From sequence record MN850590.1: a DNA stretch of 64,000 nucleotides; one strand, written 5' to 3'. This DNA comes from Escherichia phage moha. Shown in pieces: positions 14,586 through 61,346 of the stretch. Below the pieces are notes generated by a model that was not told where the DNA came from, did no database searches, and saw nothing but the letters and a program-made list of their open reading frames with translations. How positions within the stretch are numbered: position 1 is the stretch's first letter; every line of letters begins with the position of its first letter. The position numbers and the translations under genes were made by a program.

Positions 14586-14589
14586 AGCA

Positions 14590-55878: not shown

Positions 55879-56538
55879 TTATTTAGCCCTTCCTAGTATT
55901 CGGACCGCTTGGTTGCATATAGCCGCTAAGCGATCTTCCTCAAGTATATTATTCCCCTTATACCAATACATCGTCACAGTTCCAGCATAGATGTTATCCA
56001 AATTAAAGTATGGACAACTATACATATAAGAAAGTTCGGCAGTCTTAGATTTTGTAGGCAAAAATGCAAATTCTGATTTAGATGAGAAATGACGGCCACT
56101 TAAATGAATTATATATTCATTGGCCGTTTTATCCACCGGGAATCCGCCAAGGGACTTTTCAGAAATTGTGCTAGGTAGTTTGCCTTCATAAGCTATAAGG
56201 TCGACAAAATAATTTAAGTTTTTAGGTCTGAAAGAATACACAGCACTAAAATCTGCACCAGATGAGATATGAACTATTTGCAGTTGTTCTAGAGCCGCAG
56301 ATTCAAAACGTAAAGCTCGTTCTTTTTGGATTATTTCAGTATAAGTATCATACTTAGCTCTTACATAATAATCCAGCAAAATACTTCCTTTGTACCATAT
56401 TAGTGCCATTAGGAACAAAAGAATAATTACCGCTACTCGGGACATTAAAACCTTTCCAGTAGCGTTATCTTTGAAAATACGATCTAGCAACCCAAATAGA
56501 ATATCACTAGGCGAAAATGACACTTTTGGTGTTGCCAT
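55879..56538 (-). CDS. t: Holin T
   Basis: 219 aa; T4 holin-like (SFSPSDILFG..LDRIFKDNATGKV; single TM; YMYSCPYFNLDNIYAG). Confidence 0.9.
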   Translation of the reverse strand: MATPKVSFSPSDILFGLLDRIFKDNATGKVLMSRVAVIILLFLMALIWYKGSILLDYYVRAKYDTYTEIIQKERALRFESAALEQLQIVHISSGADFSAVYSFRPKNLNYFVDLIAYEGKLPSTISEKSLGGFPVDKTANEYIIHLSGRHFSSKSEFAFLPTKSKTAELSYMYSCPYFNLDNIYAGTVTMYWYKGNNILEEDRLAAICNQAVRILGRAK

Positions 56539-56547
56539 AATACCTCC

Positions 56548-57099
56548 TTACTTAAAGATATTTATAATCGCTTTGATAATAGATTTGTTTTCAAGGTCAG
56601 GGAATTTAGGGAATTCACCGCCAAGATGTTCATGTTTTTCTAAAAGGGCAAAGAATTTTTTGAGCTCTTTAAATTTTCGTTTTTCTTCTCTATTAGCAAC
56701 CTCTGCGTCAATAAGAGAACTTAAAACACTGAATAATTTATAGAGTTCATGAATTTTCTTATCACGTTGAACTACGCGTTTATATGCTTCATCTTCCTTC
56801 CACCCGTCACCGGTCCAAATGTCAAATTCACCAGGTTCTTCTGTAGTAACATTTTGAAGAGCACCTGGAGTGTCAATAACAATTTTTTGCTTATCATAAG
56901 TCCATACTGTTTTTCCACGATGGTCTTCAACATACACCCATTCTTGTTCGCGTTCATCAAATAAAACAGCATAGCCTTCTTTAGGGTCTAAAGGTTTTTT
57001 AGATGTCGAGTGAGCTGGAAGACCCATACCTTTAATCGGTTTGTAATTTTCTTCTTTGTAAAATTCTTTAGTGTCAAAATAATAATGATATATTTTCAT
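56548..57099 (-). CDS. 38: Tail-fibre assembly protein gp38 (T4-type, 183 aa)
   Basis: N-terminus MKIYHYYFDTKEFYKEENYKP as in T4 gp38 as recalled. Confidence 0.85.
   Translation of the reverse strand: MKIYHYYFDTKEFYKEENYKPIKGMGLPAHSTSKKPLDPKEGYAVLFDEREQEWVYVEDHRGKTVWTYDKQKIVIDTPGALQNVTTEEPGEFDIWTGDGWKEDEAYKRVVQRDKKIHELYKLFSVLSSLIDAEVANREEKRKFKELKKFFALLEKHEHLGGEFPKFPDLENKSIIKAIINIFK
56559..56566 (-). promoter_or_regulatory. T4-type late promoter for gene t
   Basis: TATAAATA on - strand inside the 3' end of gene 38, followed by AAGGAGG RBS and ATG of t. Confidence 0.6.
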
Positions 57100-57126
57100 A
57101 TTTAGAAGGGGCCGAAGCCCCTCTCC
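57100..57126 (-). promoter_or_regulatory. Split Shine-Dalgarno hairpin in gene 38 translation initiation region
   Basis: On - strand RNA: GGAGAG, then GGGGC-UUCG-GCCCC hairpin, then UUCUAAAUAUG; hairpin would bring SD near AUG. Confidence 0.5.
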
Positions 57127-60100
57127 TTATGCTAAACGAACGATATAGTTAAAAGCAACGTTTTTAACTGTGTTTTCTGTATTTCCTGTGGCATTTACAG
57201 TTATTGTATGTCCATGGGAACCAATCGCTACCGAATGAGAGTGGGCACCAATACCTACAGTATGTGTATGGGCACCGATACCCACAGTATGAGCATGGTT
57301 ACCTGTGGTACTTGTAGTTCCTGACCAACTATGGGTGTGGGCACCATCTGAAGAAGTTTTGGCCATATTCGACGATGCAGTAGCACCGCTCACGGTTGCA
57401 GTGAATTTAGCGTTGCCGTTTGGACCCGCACTATTGTATCCATCATAGAATATGCTAGTGGGTATGCCGCCTTGTACCTGAGGACCTGAACGCGCGTGTT
57501 GGTGCGCACCAGCGGAACTAGTATTACCACTCACTGTATGGCTATGGTTGCCAGTGGTATTACTGGTCTTAGTACCATAATCAAAGCTTGAAGTCGTTTT
57601 GCTACCGTAATCAAAACTAGAAGTGGTCTTAGTACCCAAATCTGTGCTTGATGCACTTGCACTATGGCTATGTGACTTAACACCGTCTGCTTCTGTACTC
57701 AATACATCACGCCCAGATGGTTTACCCTTAATAGTTTGCCCACGCATATCAGGAATAGTACCTGTTGGATACGCTGCCGCTAGTTTAGGATATGCAGACT
57801 TATCAAAGGTTTGACCTTCCATTAAAGCGAACCCGGCTGGAACTGAATCACTTGGCCATGGAATCGGAGCACCGACTGGATAAGGTATTTGAGCATCAGA
57901 ATACATCATATACACTTGACCAACGAGATGACCAGCGGGTAATTCTGTTACTGGTGTTTGATATCCACCATTAAGTCCAATTACCGAAATATAACGGGTA
58001 TTTTCTGTGGCGTCATATTCAACTATAAGTTTGTCTGCATAAGTCCCAGCATACAGATAAACGTCATAATCATCACCGGAGGTATTAATTGTTGCTATAT
58101 TAGTAAATCCATTACCCGTGCGCCCCCATAAAGTGGCGTTAATACCTTTAGGATTGTTATTACTGGTACGAAGAACTACTTCAGTAATTGTAGCCTGTTC
58201 TGGTGAATTGGCATTATATCCATTACCACCTATAATCTTAAATTGGACGGTAGAAACTGATTGTGGCATAGTTACAGTAGCAAATTTATACCATCCTGCA
58301 GTTGAACTACCGGACCAAGTTCCGACCTTAACTCTACGTTCTAAAGTTGTGTTCAGGTTAGCAAAATTACCAGAACCACCTGTGATGTTACCATCGGTTC
58401 CAATCTGGGTTGAACCTATTCTAAGAGGTTTAGCTATATCAACCGTATCAGAGTTTAATGCAATACCATGGGAGTAGGTGTAACTATGCATACGAACGAC
58501 GTTTCCGCCATCGCCAATACCCAAATACCATTTTGTGACATCTGCTTTACGTCCTTGGATGAAGTTAGAAGACTCTTGTGTTGGAGCATTTATTCTAATA
58601 GCATCTGATGCTGTATTTATTGTTATACGCTGACCTGCTGTAGTACCGGATGCTTCTACTTTAAATCTACCGCCACCGATATCTACATCATGATCCATGG
58701 AAACTTTACCATTACTTAATGCAATATAGAACGGACGTAAATTAGAAATACCACCTGTTTCACCAGCGTTCTGCGGAGTTGGAATAATATAAAGCTTATC
58801 TTCAGAACGACGGAAAATAGCACCATATTCGGCATTCCAAATTCTTAATGCATCTGCTGTTCCACCAAATTTAGCTTGTCCGTTTACAGATAATCCATTA
58901 TTTGCAACTAAACTTGATTCACTAACAATAGAACCGGCCGATATAATACCACCACCCACACGTAAAGCGCCGGAAATTCTAAATTGGAGAGAACCGACAG
59001 TTTCAGAACCTGTTGGAGCTAAACGTTGAGAATAAAAATGATAGCCCTGGCCGTCATACAATTCAAATACGGTTTCACGATTACCGGCAGTGGAGTCGAA
59101 TGCATTACCCCAAGCTTTCATAGTTAAATAACTTTTATTTTGTCCTGCACGGGACCCGGCATTCCACTGGATAGTTCTCGAGCCATCAACTTTGCTAGGG
59201 GCGCCAAATTTAAGTCCTGCAGTATTATTAGAACTATTTAAAAATAATTCGTTGTCCAATTTAACAGGTTGGATAGAAGAAATAGTGCCATCAGCATAAA
59301 ACTGTACATTATTAGAGCCAGTTACCAATTTCAAAATACCCGGGTTAATTTCCATACCTTCCTGTGTATTAATGTTGGTTTGGCCTTTACCACGGAAATA
59401 ATGGGAAAATTTACCGCCAGAATTATATCCAATGTGGGTTTGACCATCACCTGCATTGTTTGTATCAGCCTGGGTTTGAACCGATAAAAGCGCGGCGTTG
59501 ATTCCAGGCATGGTCCAGGTTCCGCCTTGGTCTTCTGAGCGTCCAAATAACGCTTTACGAGTACTACGGAAACTGTCAGGTGTAATAGAAGCAACAGAAT
59601 TCCAATTACCTACTAAATCATAAACGCCTTGCTTAATATATTTTAAACCAGTTGCAGCATCGCCCAAAGCAATATATCTTTCTCCCATTGGAGTAGGAGA
59701 GCCGTAGTTGTTAGTATTTTCGTCAGCAGTAATTGTGCCAATAGCAAGTGAACGACGTAATACCATTGCTCCATCATTACGAAGACCCATTAATTTAGTA
59801 GTAAGTGTATTTCCGGTCCACCAAGAAATTTCATCATTCTTACCAGTTTGAGCTGAAGCGATTTCATGGTAAATGGTTCCACCTGATTTAGCTCGAACTT
59901 TACGAAGATAGTTTATACCATTTTCTTCACCTGTTCCAGGATAAACATATTGAACTAATGACTGCGAATCGTATTGTCCAAATGCTTTTGTGTCTAAAAC
60001 AATGGTTTTCGTATTAACTTGTGGAGCAGAAACTATACCATTAGCGGAGTTAATATTGCCTGACGCAGAAATATTACCTTTGCTGACAAATAAATCACCA

Positions 60101-60618
60101 GTGTCAACTTGGAAATTACCATTACGATTAAAAGTCCAATATTTCGAATCCCCAGTTTCATCAATATAATGGAACTTAAAACTGCCTTCAGCAACCAATG
60201 TACCCGCTGAAAACGTACCATCTTTATAACGTTGCTTAATGAGTGGATGATATTCTGAAATAGAAGTAGTTGAACTTAAATCTGTAAAGATAGGAGCTTT
60301 ATTTAGGTGTTGATTTGCCCACGCGCCATTACCAGCTGTTTTAGGTAAAAATTCAATATATTTTCCTGCATAAACAAACTGATTTCCATTGAGATTATAT
60401 GTGCCGTTTTGTAAATAATCACCATTTTGAGTTACATTACCGTTAATATCCCCGCCCTTAGCAAAGCCTAGGCTAATAATATTACCGAGGTCATCTTTAG
60501 TAAAAAGAGTTCGATCTTTTAAGTTTATCGCTAATTCGCCTTCGGCTAATTGTGCTGCAGTAGGATTAACTCCTGCCACTTTGCTTCTTTTAAATTGTAT
60601 CTGTTTTAATGTAGCCAT
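57127..60618 (-). CDS. 37: Long tail fibre distal subunit gp37
   Basis: 1163 aa; C-terminal His-x-His repeat region ([24 protein letters not shown]); T4 synteny. Confidence 0.9.
57180..57330 (-). repeat. His-x-His repeat-encoding segment of gene 37
   Basis: Repeated GGCACC(A/G)ATACC...ATG(G/A)GTATG units encoding GxHxHxV repeats. Confidence 0.6.
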
Positions 60619-60626
60619 AAGTCCTC

Positions 60627-61289
60627 TTAATAATAGCCGAAATCTTGAACAGAATCTTTAATTACAATCTGGTCGAAACGAGGAACATGATTAGCCTCAG
60701 ACGCCGGATTCTGTGAGAAAAAGTTTGGTGCTGTTAAAGTACCAGTCATGGTATCGCCTTTACGCAATACACGAGAATTTGCGTTATCCGTAACAATATT
60801 TATTCGTCCATCAACATAATCTTTTCTTGTGAGATCATTTGCTGCAACCGGAGCAGTAGCGTTAGAACGGACAGGACCAATTGCATAAAAACCGCCCTTA
60901 GTGCTGATATCACCGGTACGAGCGTTAATTACAACAGTTCGGTCTGCTGAACCTTGTGATGACTTAAAACCAATACCATTCCACGAAACGATGTCAATAT
61001 TTGCCATATCAAAAGTAGCTGCATCACCGTTACCTGGATAAACACCACACTGTTGACTACTACCTACAGTAGGAACATGTACTCCTCCATTAAATCGAAC
61101 AGTTGCAGCGTAAGTACCACCATTAGCTTTAGAAACGAAATCGTTATCAGCCGCTTGTGGTTTATTATATTCTGAATAGAGTTTAAACGTTTTATACAGG
61201 ACGTCATCACCTGCTGGCATTAAAGGGAAATTACCTTGATGCCATATGACAGCACCGCCAGTTGTACTACCAGCTTTTAAATCGGCCAT
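60627..61289 (-). CDS. 36: Long tail fibre hinge protein gp36
   Basis: 220 aa, position between 35 and 37; TATAAATA late promoter upstream. Confidence 0.8.
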
Positions 61290-61313: not shown

Positions 61314-61321
61314 TATTTATA
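61314..61321 (-). promoter_or_regulatory. T4-type late promoter for gene 36
   Basis: TATAAATA on - strand about 25 nt upstream of gene 36 ATG with AAGGAGA RBS. Confidence 0.6.
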
Positions 61322-61346
61322 CAAAAATGGGAGACCGAAGTCTCCC
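61319..61346 (-). terminator. Intrinsic terminator after gene 35
   Basis: GGGAGAC-UUCG-GUCUCCC followed by AUUUUUGU on - strand RNA. Confidence 0.6.

Follow-up and report, generated by a model that had tools for sequence, protein, structure and literature searches.

A hairpin within the ribosome-binding site of gene 38 in Escherichia phage moha: a probable orthologue of the split initiation site of T4

The junction between genes 37 and 38 of Escherichia phage moha, which occupies positions 57100-57126 on the - strand of the window (the entire 64,000-nucleotide stretch of record MN850590.1 that was analysed), is probably the orthologue of the split, or noncontiguous, ribosome-binding site of T4 gene 38. 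The element is already known, and the preliminary description of this DNA, which had recognized in it the T4 gene 38 site and taken it as a sign that this control is conserved, coincides with the published interpretation. That reading is supported by a difference of only one nucleotide from the T4 reference (NC_000866), by the identification of genes 37, 38 and t around the junction and by the retention of GGAG and of the stem in 25 T4-type junctions. This is a textbook case of RNA structure aiding translation initiation and nothing about it is new in principle; a modest new angle is provided by the position of the same hairpin, which in T4-type phages separates the Shine-Dalgarno sequence (SD) from the AUG and in T2-type phages precedes the SD.

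In T4, genes 38 and 25 both display an extended spacing between SD and AUG, which is brought to a functional distance by intervening RNA structure, from 22 to 5 nt in the case of gene 38 (PMC3014915). The stable hairpins found between SD and start codon in gene 38 (Gold 1988) and gene 25 (Nivinskas 1999) are 'suggested' to help initiation, and these sites are termed noncontiguous or split, in a further article (PMC7297116). For gene 38 these sources word the mechanism as 'suggested', whereas for gene 25 they describe evidence from mutants and from probing (PMC3014915, PMC7297116), the reported support for gene 25 consisting of reporter, mutational and DMS-probing data (Nivinskas et al. 1999; Malys and Nivinskas 2009, both via PMC3014915). 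The T4 gene 26-25 junction resembles the one studied here in that the gene 25 SD lies 27 nt from the AUG and a stem reduces this distance to 11 nt, and that arrangement is shared by close T-even phages but not by distant ones (PMC3014915). The two junctions nevertheless differ in gene, sequence and stem, and gene 25 lies outside the window.

Gene 37, which encodes the long tail fibre distal subunit (1163 aa, 57127..60618, - strand; ORF list and Pfam), was identified by Pfam Collar and Phage_fiber domains (C-terminal part) of its product, and its final 24 nt are identical to those of T4 gene 37. It is followed on the same strand by gene 38 (56548..57099, 183 aa; ORF list), which encodes a T4-type tail-fibre assembly chaperone (Pfam PF02413, Caudo_TAP), and next by gene t, encoding the T holin (56538-55879, - strand). 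The gene order 36-37-38-t on the - strand is the same as in T4. The closest database match at the junction is Shigella phage JK36, with 100% identity over 57250-56900 and 97.7% over 853 nt. The DNA is accordingly that of a T4-like phage.

Genes 37 and 38 are separated by exactly the 27 nt at 57100-57126. The sequence of the - strand is gca-UAA-GGAGA-GGGGC-UUCG-GCCCC-UUCUAAAU-AUG, with GUU CGU UUA GCA UAA before GGAGA and AUG AAA AUA UAU opening gene 38. GGAG follows the gene 37 stop codon UAA (57129-57127) without a gap, so that the stop codon provides the first three nucleotides of an SD, UAAGGAG (57123..57129), whose GGAG core is at 57126-57123. The hexamer GGAGAG (57126-57121) had been placed 27 nt ahead of the AUG, which is correct when counted from its first G to the A of AUG. 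The core hairpin GGGGC-UUCG-GCCCC (57108..57121) consists of a 5' arm at 57121-57117, a loop at 57116-57113 and a 3' arm at 57112-57108, with A57122-U57107 as a possible closing pair. It does exist as first described, but it does not cleanly separate GGAGAG from the AUG, as had been stated, since G57121 is common to the hexamer and the stem. Eight nucleotides, UUCUAAAU (57100..57107), pyrimidine-rich and then A-rich, lead from the hairpin to the gene 38 start codon (57099-57097; ORF list and sequence). No SD-like sequence is present in these 8 nt, which do contain a UUCU complementary to AGA/GGA of the SD. The start of gene 38 at 57099 is confirmed despite the missing proximal SD.

When set beside T4, where the corresponding sequence is UAA GGAGAG GGGC UUCG GCCC UUCUAAAU AUG (NC_000866), the junction is found at the orthologous locus and shares UAA-GGAGAG, the GGGC-UUCG-GCCC core, the entire UUCUAAAU-AUG segment and the first codons of gene 38. 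It differs by one additional C in the 3' arm, which creates a perfect 5-bp G/C stem and makes the distance between GGAG and AUG 23 nt instead of 22, and its gp38 is 68% identical to that of T4 over 179 aa. The 5-bp allele is the commoner one among relatives, the T4 reference being the outlier.

The sequence UAAGGAG is predicted to form a 7-bp duplex with the 3' end of 16S rRNA, ACCUCCUUA, at -9.0 kcal/mol. At 23 nt from the start codon it lies beyond the 15 nt above which a ribosome-binding site is considered split, and the stem-loop is wholly inside the spacer: folded alone, the spacer forms A-GGGGC-UUCG-GCCCC-U, with a predicted energy of -11.3 kcal/mol, a 16-nt hairpin that leaves 7 nt before the AUG and an effective spacing within 5-11 nt. 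The corresponding distances are 6 nt after GGAG for gene 36 (UAAGGAG-ACAACU-AUG, AUG at 61289) and 5 nt for gene t (UAAGGAGGU-AUU-AUG, AUG at 56538, in which the UAA is the gene 38 stop), as compared with 7 nt for gene 38 in its predicted looped-out form, UAAGGAG-[hairpin]-UCUAAAU-AUG. The proposal that folding would bring the SD to a normal spacing is supported by the predicted fold. Inserting a 16-nt hairpin into the 38/t junction would give something like the 37/38 junction.

Transcription of the region was considered through the late-promoter consensus TATAAATA. The nearest copy 5' of gene 38 on the - strand is at 61321-61314, before gene 36, where it follows a CUUCGG hairpin with a T-run (61346-61329), the two together spanning 61314..61346; another copy, within the 3' end of gene 38 (56559..56566, - strand), serves gene t. 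No TATAAATA was found on the - strand between 61314 and 57099, and gene 38 has no late-promoter consensus of its own. Lacking such a motif between itself and gene 36, gene 38 must be translated from the polycistronic 36-37-38 RNA, and the hairpin is therefore internal to that mRNA. A gp37-gp38 read-through fusion was also considered, as the 27-nt gap keeps the two genes in frame, and was discarded because the gaps in relatives are 26, 29 or 30 nt and the frame is not conserved.

A mechanism can be outlined in which gene 38 would be translated off the 36-37-38 late mRNA, its sole SD being the UAAGGAG that includes the gene 37 stop codon, 23 nt 5' of the AUG. Of these 23 nt, 16 would be taken up by a very stable tetraloop hairpin, A-GGGGC-UUCG-GCCCC-U, and pairing of the 30S subunit with the SD would leave this hairpin looped out and the SD about 7 nt from the AUG, as in genes 36 and t (5-6 nt). 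Such looping out is suggested by analogy with what has been published on T4 genes 38 and 25.

A chance origin of the hairpin was rejected. The 64-kb window contains three perfect hairpins whose 5-bp stem is G/C-only and whose loop is of 4 nt, as against a mean of 0.05 expected per window and a maximum of 1 in 100 dinucleotide shuffles of this sequence (the genome is 37% G+C). In a scan of the window that took in all ATG ORFs of 60 aa or more and sought a distant GGAG/GAGG and a spacer folding at -7 kcal/mol or better, gene 38 was the sole start that displayed both. The 56-nt context has a minimum free energy (MFE) of -15.6 kcal/mol (z = -2.16). An outer helix between CAUA in the gene 37 stop region and UAUG at the gene 38 AUG is part of the MFE fold, but it was rejected, being made of only four weak pairs, displaying no covariation and being broken in SP18 (GCUUAA). 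Among Rfam covariance models, the best match was IS128, which at 18.8 bits (gathering score 80, E = 0.2) is sub-threshold noise; Rfam thus has no family for this hairpin.

Conservation was assessed in 25 independent junctions with a T4-type gene 38, assembled record by record from a phage collection and coming from Tequatrovirus, Mosigvirus, Gaprivervirus, Dhakavirus and metagenomic contigs. All 25 have the same layout, UAA, an immediate GGAG, the hairpin, 8-10 nt and AUG, and no SD or purine-rich motif is present between hairpin and AUG in any variant. As GGAG is invariant and there is no proximal SD, the ribosome-binding site really does span the hairpin. The stem exists as GGGGC/GCCCC, GGGC/GCCC or GGGAC/GUCCC and the loop as UUCG, UUAG, UUCA or UUCU; as judged from the alignment, substitutions appear to fall in the loop or downstream spacer, or to be compensated in the stem. 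In an alignment of 18 T4-type sequences (13 distinct), 63/63 cells (100%) are paired, slid controls reaching at most 75%, and one stem pair covaries, being G-C in eight sequences and A-U in four, with a covariation score that was reached by 1/500 shuffles. This covariation appears real but thin, since it concerns a single position and possibly one or two evolutionary events. Metagenomes contributed little to this set: IMG/VR queries with the gp38 protein and with the gene 37-end pattern returned very few T4-like loci, a degenerate gene 38 N-terminal DNA pattern in IMG/VR returned 23 loci with one true gp38 locus by tblastn, a scan of a single metagenome gave four loci and a scan of genome contigs none. 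Aeromonas phage 25 and Acinetobacter phage PhT2 have another gene order at this locus and are uninformative.

The predicted folds suggest that the hairpin does more than shorten the spacer. In the window, MFE pairing reaches into GGAG, out to 57124 or 57126, with partners out to 57104, and in free-RNA folds of every variant the stem extends into the SD, a UUCU or UUUUU tract pairing with GA/AGA of GGAGA. The SD would accordingly be partly sequestered in the free RNA, because these folds take the stem into GGAG, and for the same reason the hairpin would not be purely a spacer-shortener. The probability of being unpaired is 0.33-0.36 for the GGAG bases of the window allele, does not exceed 0.5 for at least part of GGAG in any variant and is near zero for part of it in T4 and NBG1, while the full 7-nt SD is free in at most 1% of the predicted ensemble. 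The predicted cost of freeing the SD is 3.2 kcal/mol in the window, 6.1 in T4 and 4.3 in NBG1, to be compared with -9.0 kcal/mol for the SD:anti-SD duplex. According to these predictions, a 30S subunit can melt the outer pairs, which are weak, while the G/C core stays intact, and the structure would not be purely helpful.

Partial sequestration suggests that translation of gene 38 may be coupled to termination at gene 37. A ribosome terminating at the gene 37 stop must, given its footprint, unwind the 5' arm of the hairpin, and this, together with the contact between that stop codon and the SD, makes coupling of gp38 to gp37 translation plausible. Within the mechanism outlined above, the pyrimidine tract 3' of the hairpin would pair back on GGAG in the free RNA and partly mask the SD; the 30S subunit would unmask it on binding, and ribosomes that terminate at the gene 37 stop, having to melt the hairpin, would do so more efficiently, and gp38 synthesis would in this way be coupled to gp37 synthesis. 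In the strongest form of this idea, the hairpin mainly sequesters the SD, its shortening of the spacing being secondary, and gene 38 is translated almost only by termination-reinitiation, a ribosome at UAA 57129-57127 unwinding the 5' arm and freeing GGAG, after which the 30S subunit re-engages and starts at AUG 57099. We regard this strong form as doubtful. It is favoured by the gene 37 stop adjoining the SD, by the stem covering part of GGAG in every variant with so little of the full SD free, and by Mosigvirus-type variants in which an extra A in the 5' flank is accompanied by extra U's in the 3' flank, so that the extended pairing is kept. However, the pairs of the outer stem, A-U and G-U, are weak, a tract rich in U downstream of a GC hairpin can be explained in other ways, and once the hairpin is melted the SD is 23 nt from the AUG, so that refolding of the core would still be required. 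In Salmonella phage Lv5cm, a 78-bp duplication has produced a full-length gene 38 copy that has the hairpin, has no GGAG and is preceded by an 18-codon mini-ORF whose stop adjoins the hairpin, a layout which would be in accord with reinitiation, although it is possibly an assembly artefact. Coupling overlaps the split-site explanation and does not exclude it. Conversely, an SD that is free in such a small part of the ensemble argues for repression and against the split site, unless the structure is opened by ribosomes or through coupling. It is likely that an independent role of the hairpin and coupling to gene 37 termination are superimposed on the split site and do not compete with it to its exclusion.

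An independent role is suggested by the company that the hairpin keeps. Post-cistronic C(UUCG)G hairpins and intrinsic terminators are said to have been described in T-even phages by Tuerk and colleagues (Tuerk et al., in 1988), and the hairpin studied here is similar to these in having a G/C stem, a UUCG loop and a position 4 nt after a stop codon. The window has 12 CUUCGG hairpins, seven of which lie no more than 8 nt past an ORF stop and most of which have T-runs, and CTTCGG occurs 28 times, as against 16.2 +/- 3.9 in shuffles; both of the other G/C-only hairpins are terminator-like. These observations favour the idea that the hairpin is primarily a transcriptional attenuator, reducing the message for gene 38 in comparison with gene 37, or that it stabilises the 3' end of the 36-37 mRNA, its place in a ribosome-binding site being tolerated. 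Also in favour of it are the 'terminator' label on this very hairpin in the NBG1 and G2469 records, its occurrence in the Yersinia phage vB_Yen_X1 with a terminator score and no gene 38, and its retention by T2-type phages in which the SD is downstream. Nevertheless, as a primary function this appears unlikely. The hairpin has the G/C-rich stem-loop of a terminator (5-bp G/C stem, UUCG loop), but its tail is UUCUAAAU instead of a U-tract occupying at least 5/8 positions directly after the stem, and for this reason it fails a terminator scan that does report the hairpin at 61346-61329; the Mosigvirus form fails as well. Unlike all other CUUCGG hairpins in the window, for which the next start is at least 21 nt away, it has a start 7 nt away, and it lacks a T-run. 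Nor does it lie at the end of a transcription unit, as gene 38 starts 8 nt downstream and no TATAAATA is found over 61314-57099. Gene 38 is required for fibre assembly in T4, and any termination at the hairpin must be incomplete, since no late-promoter consensus follows it. T4-type junctions, with their invariant upstream GGAG and no proximal SD, also speak against attenuation as the main role, in that the ribosome-binding site spans the hairpin. In view of the failed scans and of the missing downstream consensus, the 'terminator' features in NBG1 and G2469 are not the whole story, and such labels give at best an incomplete account in some related GenBank records. The hairpin may cause partial termination or protect a 3' end; a search of the literature for T4 Term-seq or 3'-end data yielded nothing usable.

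A hairpin of this kind is indeed present outside T4-type junctions. In T2-type phages, the coding sequence on both sides of the junction is unrelated to that of T4-type phages and gp38 is an unrelated, adhesin-type protein, yet a homologous G/C tetraloop hairpin is encountered 1-6 nt past the gene 37 stop and precedes the SD. The T2 junction reads UAA A AGAGGGC UUCG GCCCUCU AAGGA UUUUUA AUG, that of T6 AGGGGC UUU GCCCCU UU GGAG AAAAUU AUG, that of Serratia phage X20 GGGGC UCCG GCCCC UU AAGGA UUUAUU AUG and that of Klebsiella phage KaAlpha GGGCC UUCG GGCCC U AGAGGA UUUUUAA AUG, and three IMG/VR contigs have the same hairpin-then-SD pattern. Unlike the T4-type site, these are contiguous sites in which the SD (UAAGGA, GGAG or AGAGGA) follows the hairpin and is 6-7 nt before the AUG. 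The Phi1 (Krischvirus) junction has no such hairpin. In unrelated, 50-kb vB_Yen_X1, a homologous fibre-gene 3' end is followed by GGGGC-UUCG-GCCCC and TTTATTTTTTT, which score as a terminator, and gene 38 is absent downstream; this homologue does have the U-tract that the site in the window lacks. In a hairpin-centred alignment of both junction types (12 distinct sequences), a small and hand-picked sample, 95% of cells are paired and 4/7 pairs show double changes, a covariation that 0/500 shuffles reach; one stem position is occupied by G-C, A-U and C-G. The stem is thus kept by compensatory change both among T4-type junctions and in the wider set.

The persistence of a homologous hairpin between unrelated coding sequences in T2-type and T4-type phages, and in an unrelated Yersinia phage, could also be viewed at the level of DNA, the GGGG..CCCC palindrome being a linker or recombination hotspot through which adhesin and chaperone cassettes are swapped at 37/38, and any effects on RNA being by-products. 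Conserved GGGG...CCCC stem-loops have been proposed to mediate modular shuffling in T4-type genomes (PMC2839356), a report which counts in favour of such a role. As the main explanation this is nonetheless improbable, as a 14-bp patch is short for homologous recombination and as the stem has changed in sequence while remaining paired (one position is G-C, A-U or C-G), which points to structure as the object of selection, whereas in a homology patch it is identity of sequence that would be maintained.

Protection of the SD from nucleolytic attack was also considered. The T4 endoribonuclease RegB, with S1, targets an 11-nt single-stranded sequence consisting of GGAG and A-rich sequence, late intergenic GGAG motifs are uncut or poorly cut, and in 16 RegB-resistant RNAs GGAG was found in stable structures, often with UUCG loops (PMC1702504). 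Here GGAG directly precedes the hairpin, which could shield it by removing the single-stranded A-rich context 3' of GGA. It is highly improbable that this accounts for the hairpin, given that RegB acts on early transcripts (PMC1702504) and that T2-type phages retain the hairpin where it does not cover the SD. The late neighbours 36 and t manage with unstructured UAAGGAG and no such protection, so that shielding from RegB would be no more than an incidental gain.

Why the hairpin is kept is a question that the split site itself raises, for if spacing were its sole purpose, deletion of the hairpin would serve equally well. That T2-type phages keep it with the SD downstream suggests that it probably exists for another reason too. 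Taken together, these comparisons place it in the post-cistronic CUUCGG class, kept at the end of gene 37 for reasons of its own, among which 3' stabilisation, attenuation and a linker for cassette exchange are possible. It is probably an older conserved element of the gene 37 end, and the T4-type layout would accommodate it by having the SD upstream; its stem has been kept by compensatory change in at least six genera of Tevenvirinae, regardless of the gene downstream. These notions can be joined in a broader reading, in which the hairpin, far from having evolved for gene 38 translation, is an ancient companion of the 3' end of the receptor-binding fibre gene and moves with it, delimits the site of exchange of adhesin and chaperone cassettes and acts as an attenuator or 3' stabiliser setting the gp37:gp38 ratio. 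A Tfa-type gene 38 would then have been joined directly behind it, with an SD recreated upstream, and the split site would be secondary. This broader reading is entertained tentatively, at somewhat less than even chances. The reason for which the hairpin has been retained is made testable by the two layouts, T2-type and T4-type. A fibre C-terminus followed by a Tfa-type chaperone is also found at the lambda stf/tfa junction, which has homologous proteins on both sides; unlike the junction described here, that of lambda has no hairpin, and stop and start codons overlap there as TAATG.

In T2-type phages, whose gp38 is of the adhesin type, a homologous G/C tetraloop hairpin is retained directly 3' of gene 37, while the Shine-Dalgarno sequence (SD) lies downstream of it, 6-7 nt before the AUG. 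Such junction hairpins are found (in coordinates internal to each comparison locus) between genes 37 and 38 of T2 (L050 448-483), T6 (L051 452-487), Serratia X20 (L052 239-273) and Klebsiella KaAlpha (L053 625-661), with further T2-type examples in L057-L059 (about 360-403), and their stems covary (AGAGGGC/GCCCUCU, GGGGC/GCCCC, GGGCC/GGCCC). In the T6 RefSeq record (NC_054907; L051 473-487), the annotated start of gene 38 is a TTG within the hairpin tail. The sequence GGAG-AAAAUU-AUG-GCA-GUA-GUU-GGU, whose reading MAVVG... resembles MAIVG... of T2, points to the ATG 12 nt downstream of the annotated TTG as the true start.

In the window, genes 37 and 38 share a reading frame (57129-57097, - strand), with a UAA and nine sense codons between them. 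This shared frame is not conserved, because the corresponding gap in relatives is 26, 29 or 30 nt, and it is probably meaningless. As for the window's gp38 (56548-57099), comparison with L001 and L002 revealed about 95% identity to Mosigvirus gp38, e.g. that of NBG1, versus only 68% to T4 gp38. The intergenic hairpin allele, however, is of the T4/Dhakavirus type, not the GGGAC/GUCCC of Mosigvirus, and this combination suggests recombination near the 37/38 junction.

The following junction, between genes 38 and t, has the same stop-in-SD design as the 37/38 junction but lacks a hairpin. The late promoter and SD of gene t lie within 56566-56536 (- strand), with the promoter, TATAAATA, located within the 3' end of gene 38 and the SD being a perfect 9-nt UAAGGAGGU, the first 3 nt of which are the gene 38 stop UAA (56550-56548).

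CTTCGG is enriched in the whole window, with 28 occurrences versus 16.2 +/- 3.9 in shuffled sequences, and 12 of these fold into hairpins whose stems measure 6-11 bp. Seven of the 12 lie no more than 8 nt 3' of a same-strand ORF stop, and most carry T-runs, which are absent at 14589, 25274 (a hairpin within an ORF), 27029, 44511 and 51471. Between genes 35 and 36, the region at 61346-61314 (- strand) is a cassette of terminator plus late promoter. Its CUUCGG hairpin and T-run (GGGAGAC-UUCG-GUCUCCC-AUUUUUG) immediately precede the late-promoter consensus; this consensus, TATAAATA, lies 24 nt upstream of the gene 36 AUG (61289).

A GGGGC-UUCG-GCCCC hairpin identical to that of the window is also present in the 50-kb non-T4 Yersinia phage vB_Yen_X1 (MN617773; L027 1531-1590), 3' of a tail-protein gene whose final ~54 nt are ~84% identical to the end of gene 37. 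There the hairpin runs into a long T-run, is not followed by gene 38 and scores as a terminator; the next gene, 116 nt downstream, has a sigma-70-like promoter of its own. In Salmonella phage Lv5cm (MZ150757; L032 520-640), a 78-bp tandem duplication encompasses the hairpin and gene 38 codons 1-18. Either the duplication is an assembly artefact or it offers a natural test of coupling in the absence of the SD. Copy 1 retains GGAGAG, and its 18-codon mini-ORF terminates at a UAG; copy 2, the full-length gene 38, is preceded by AAUUAGGGCUUCGGCCCC, in which the hairpin is present without GGAG.
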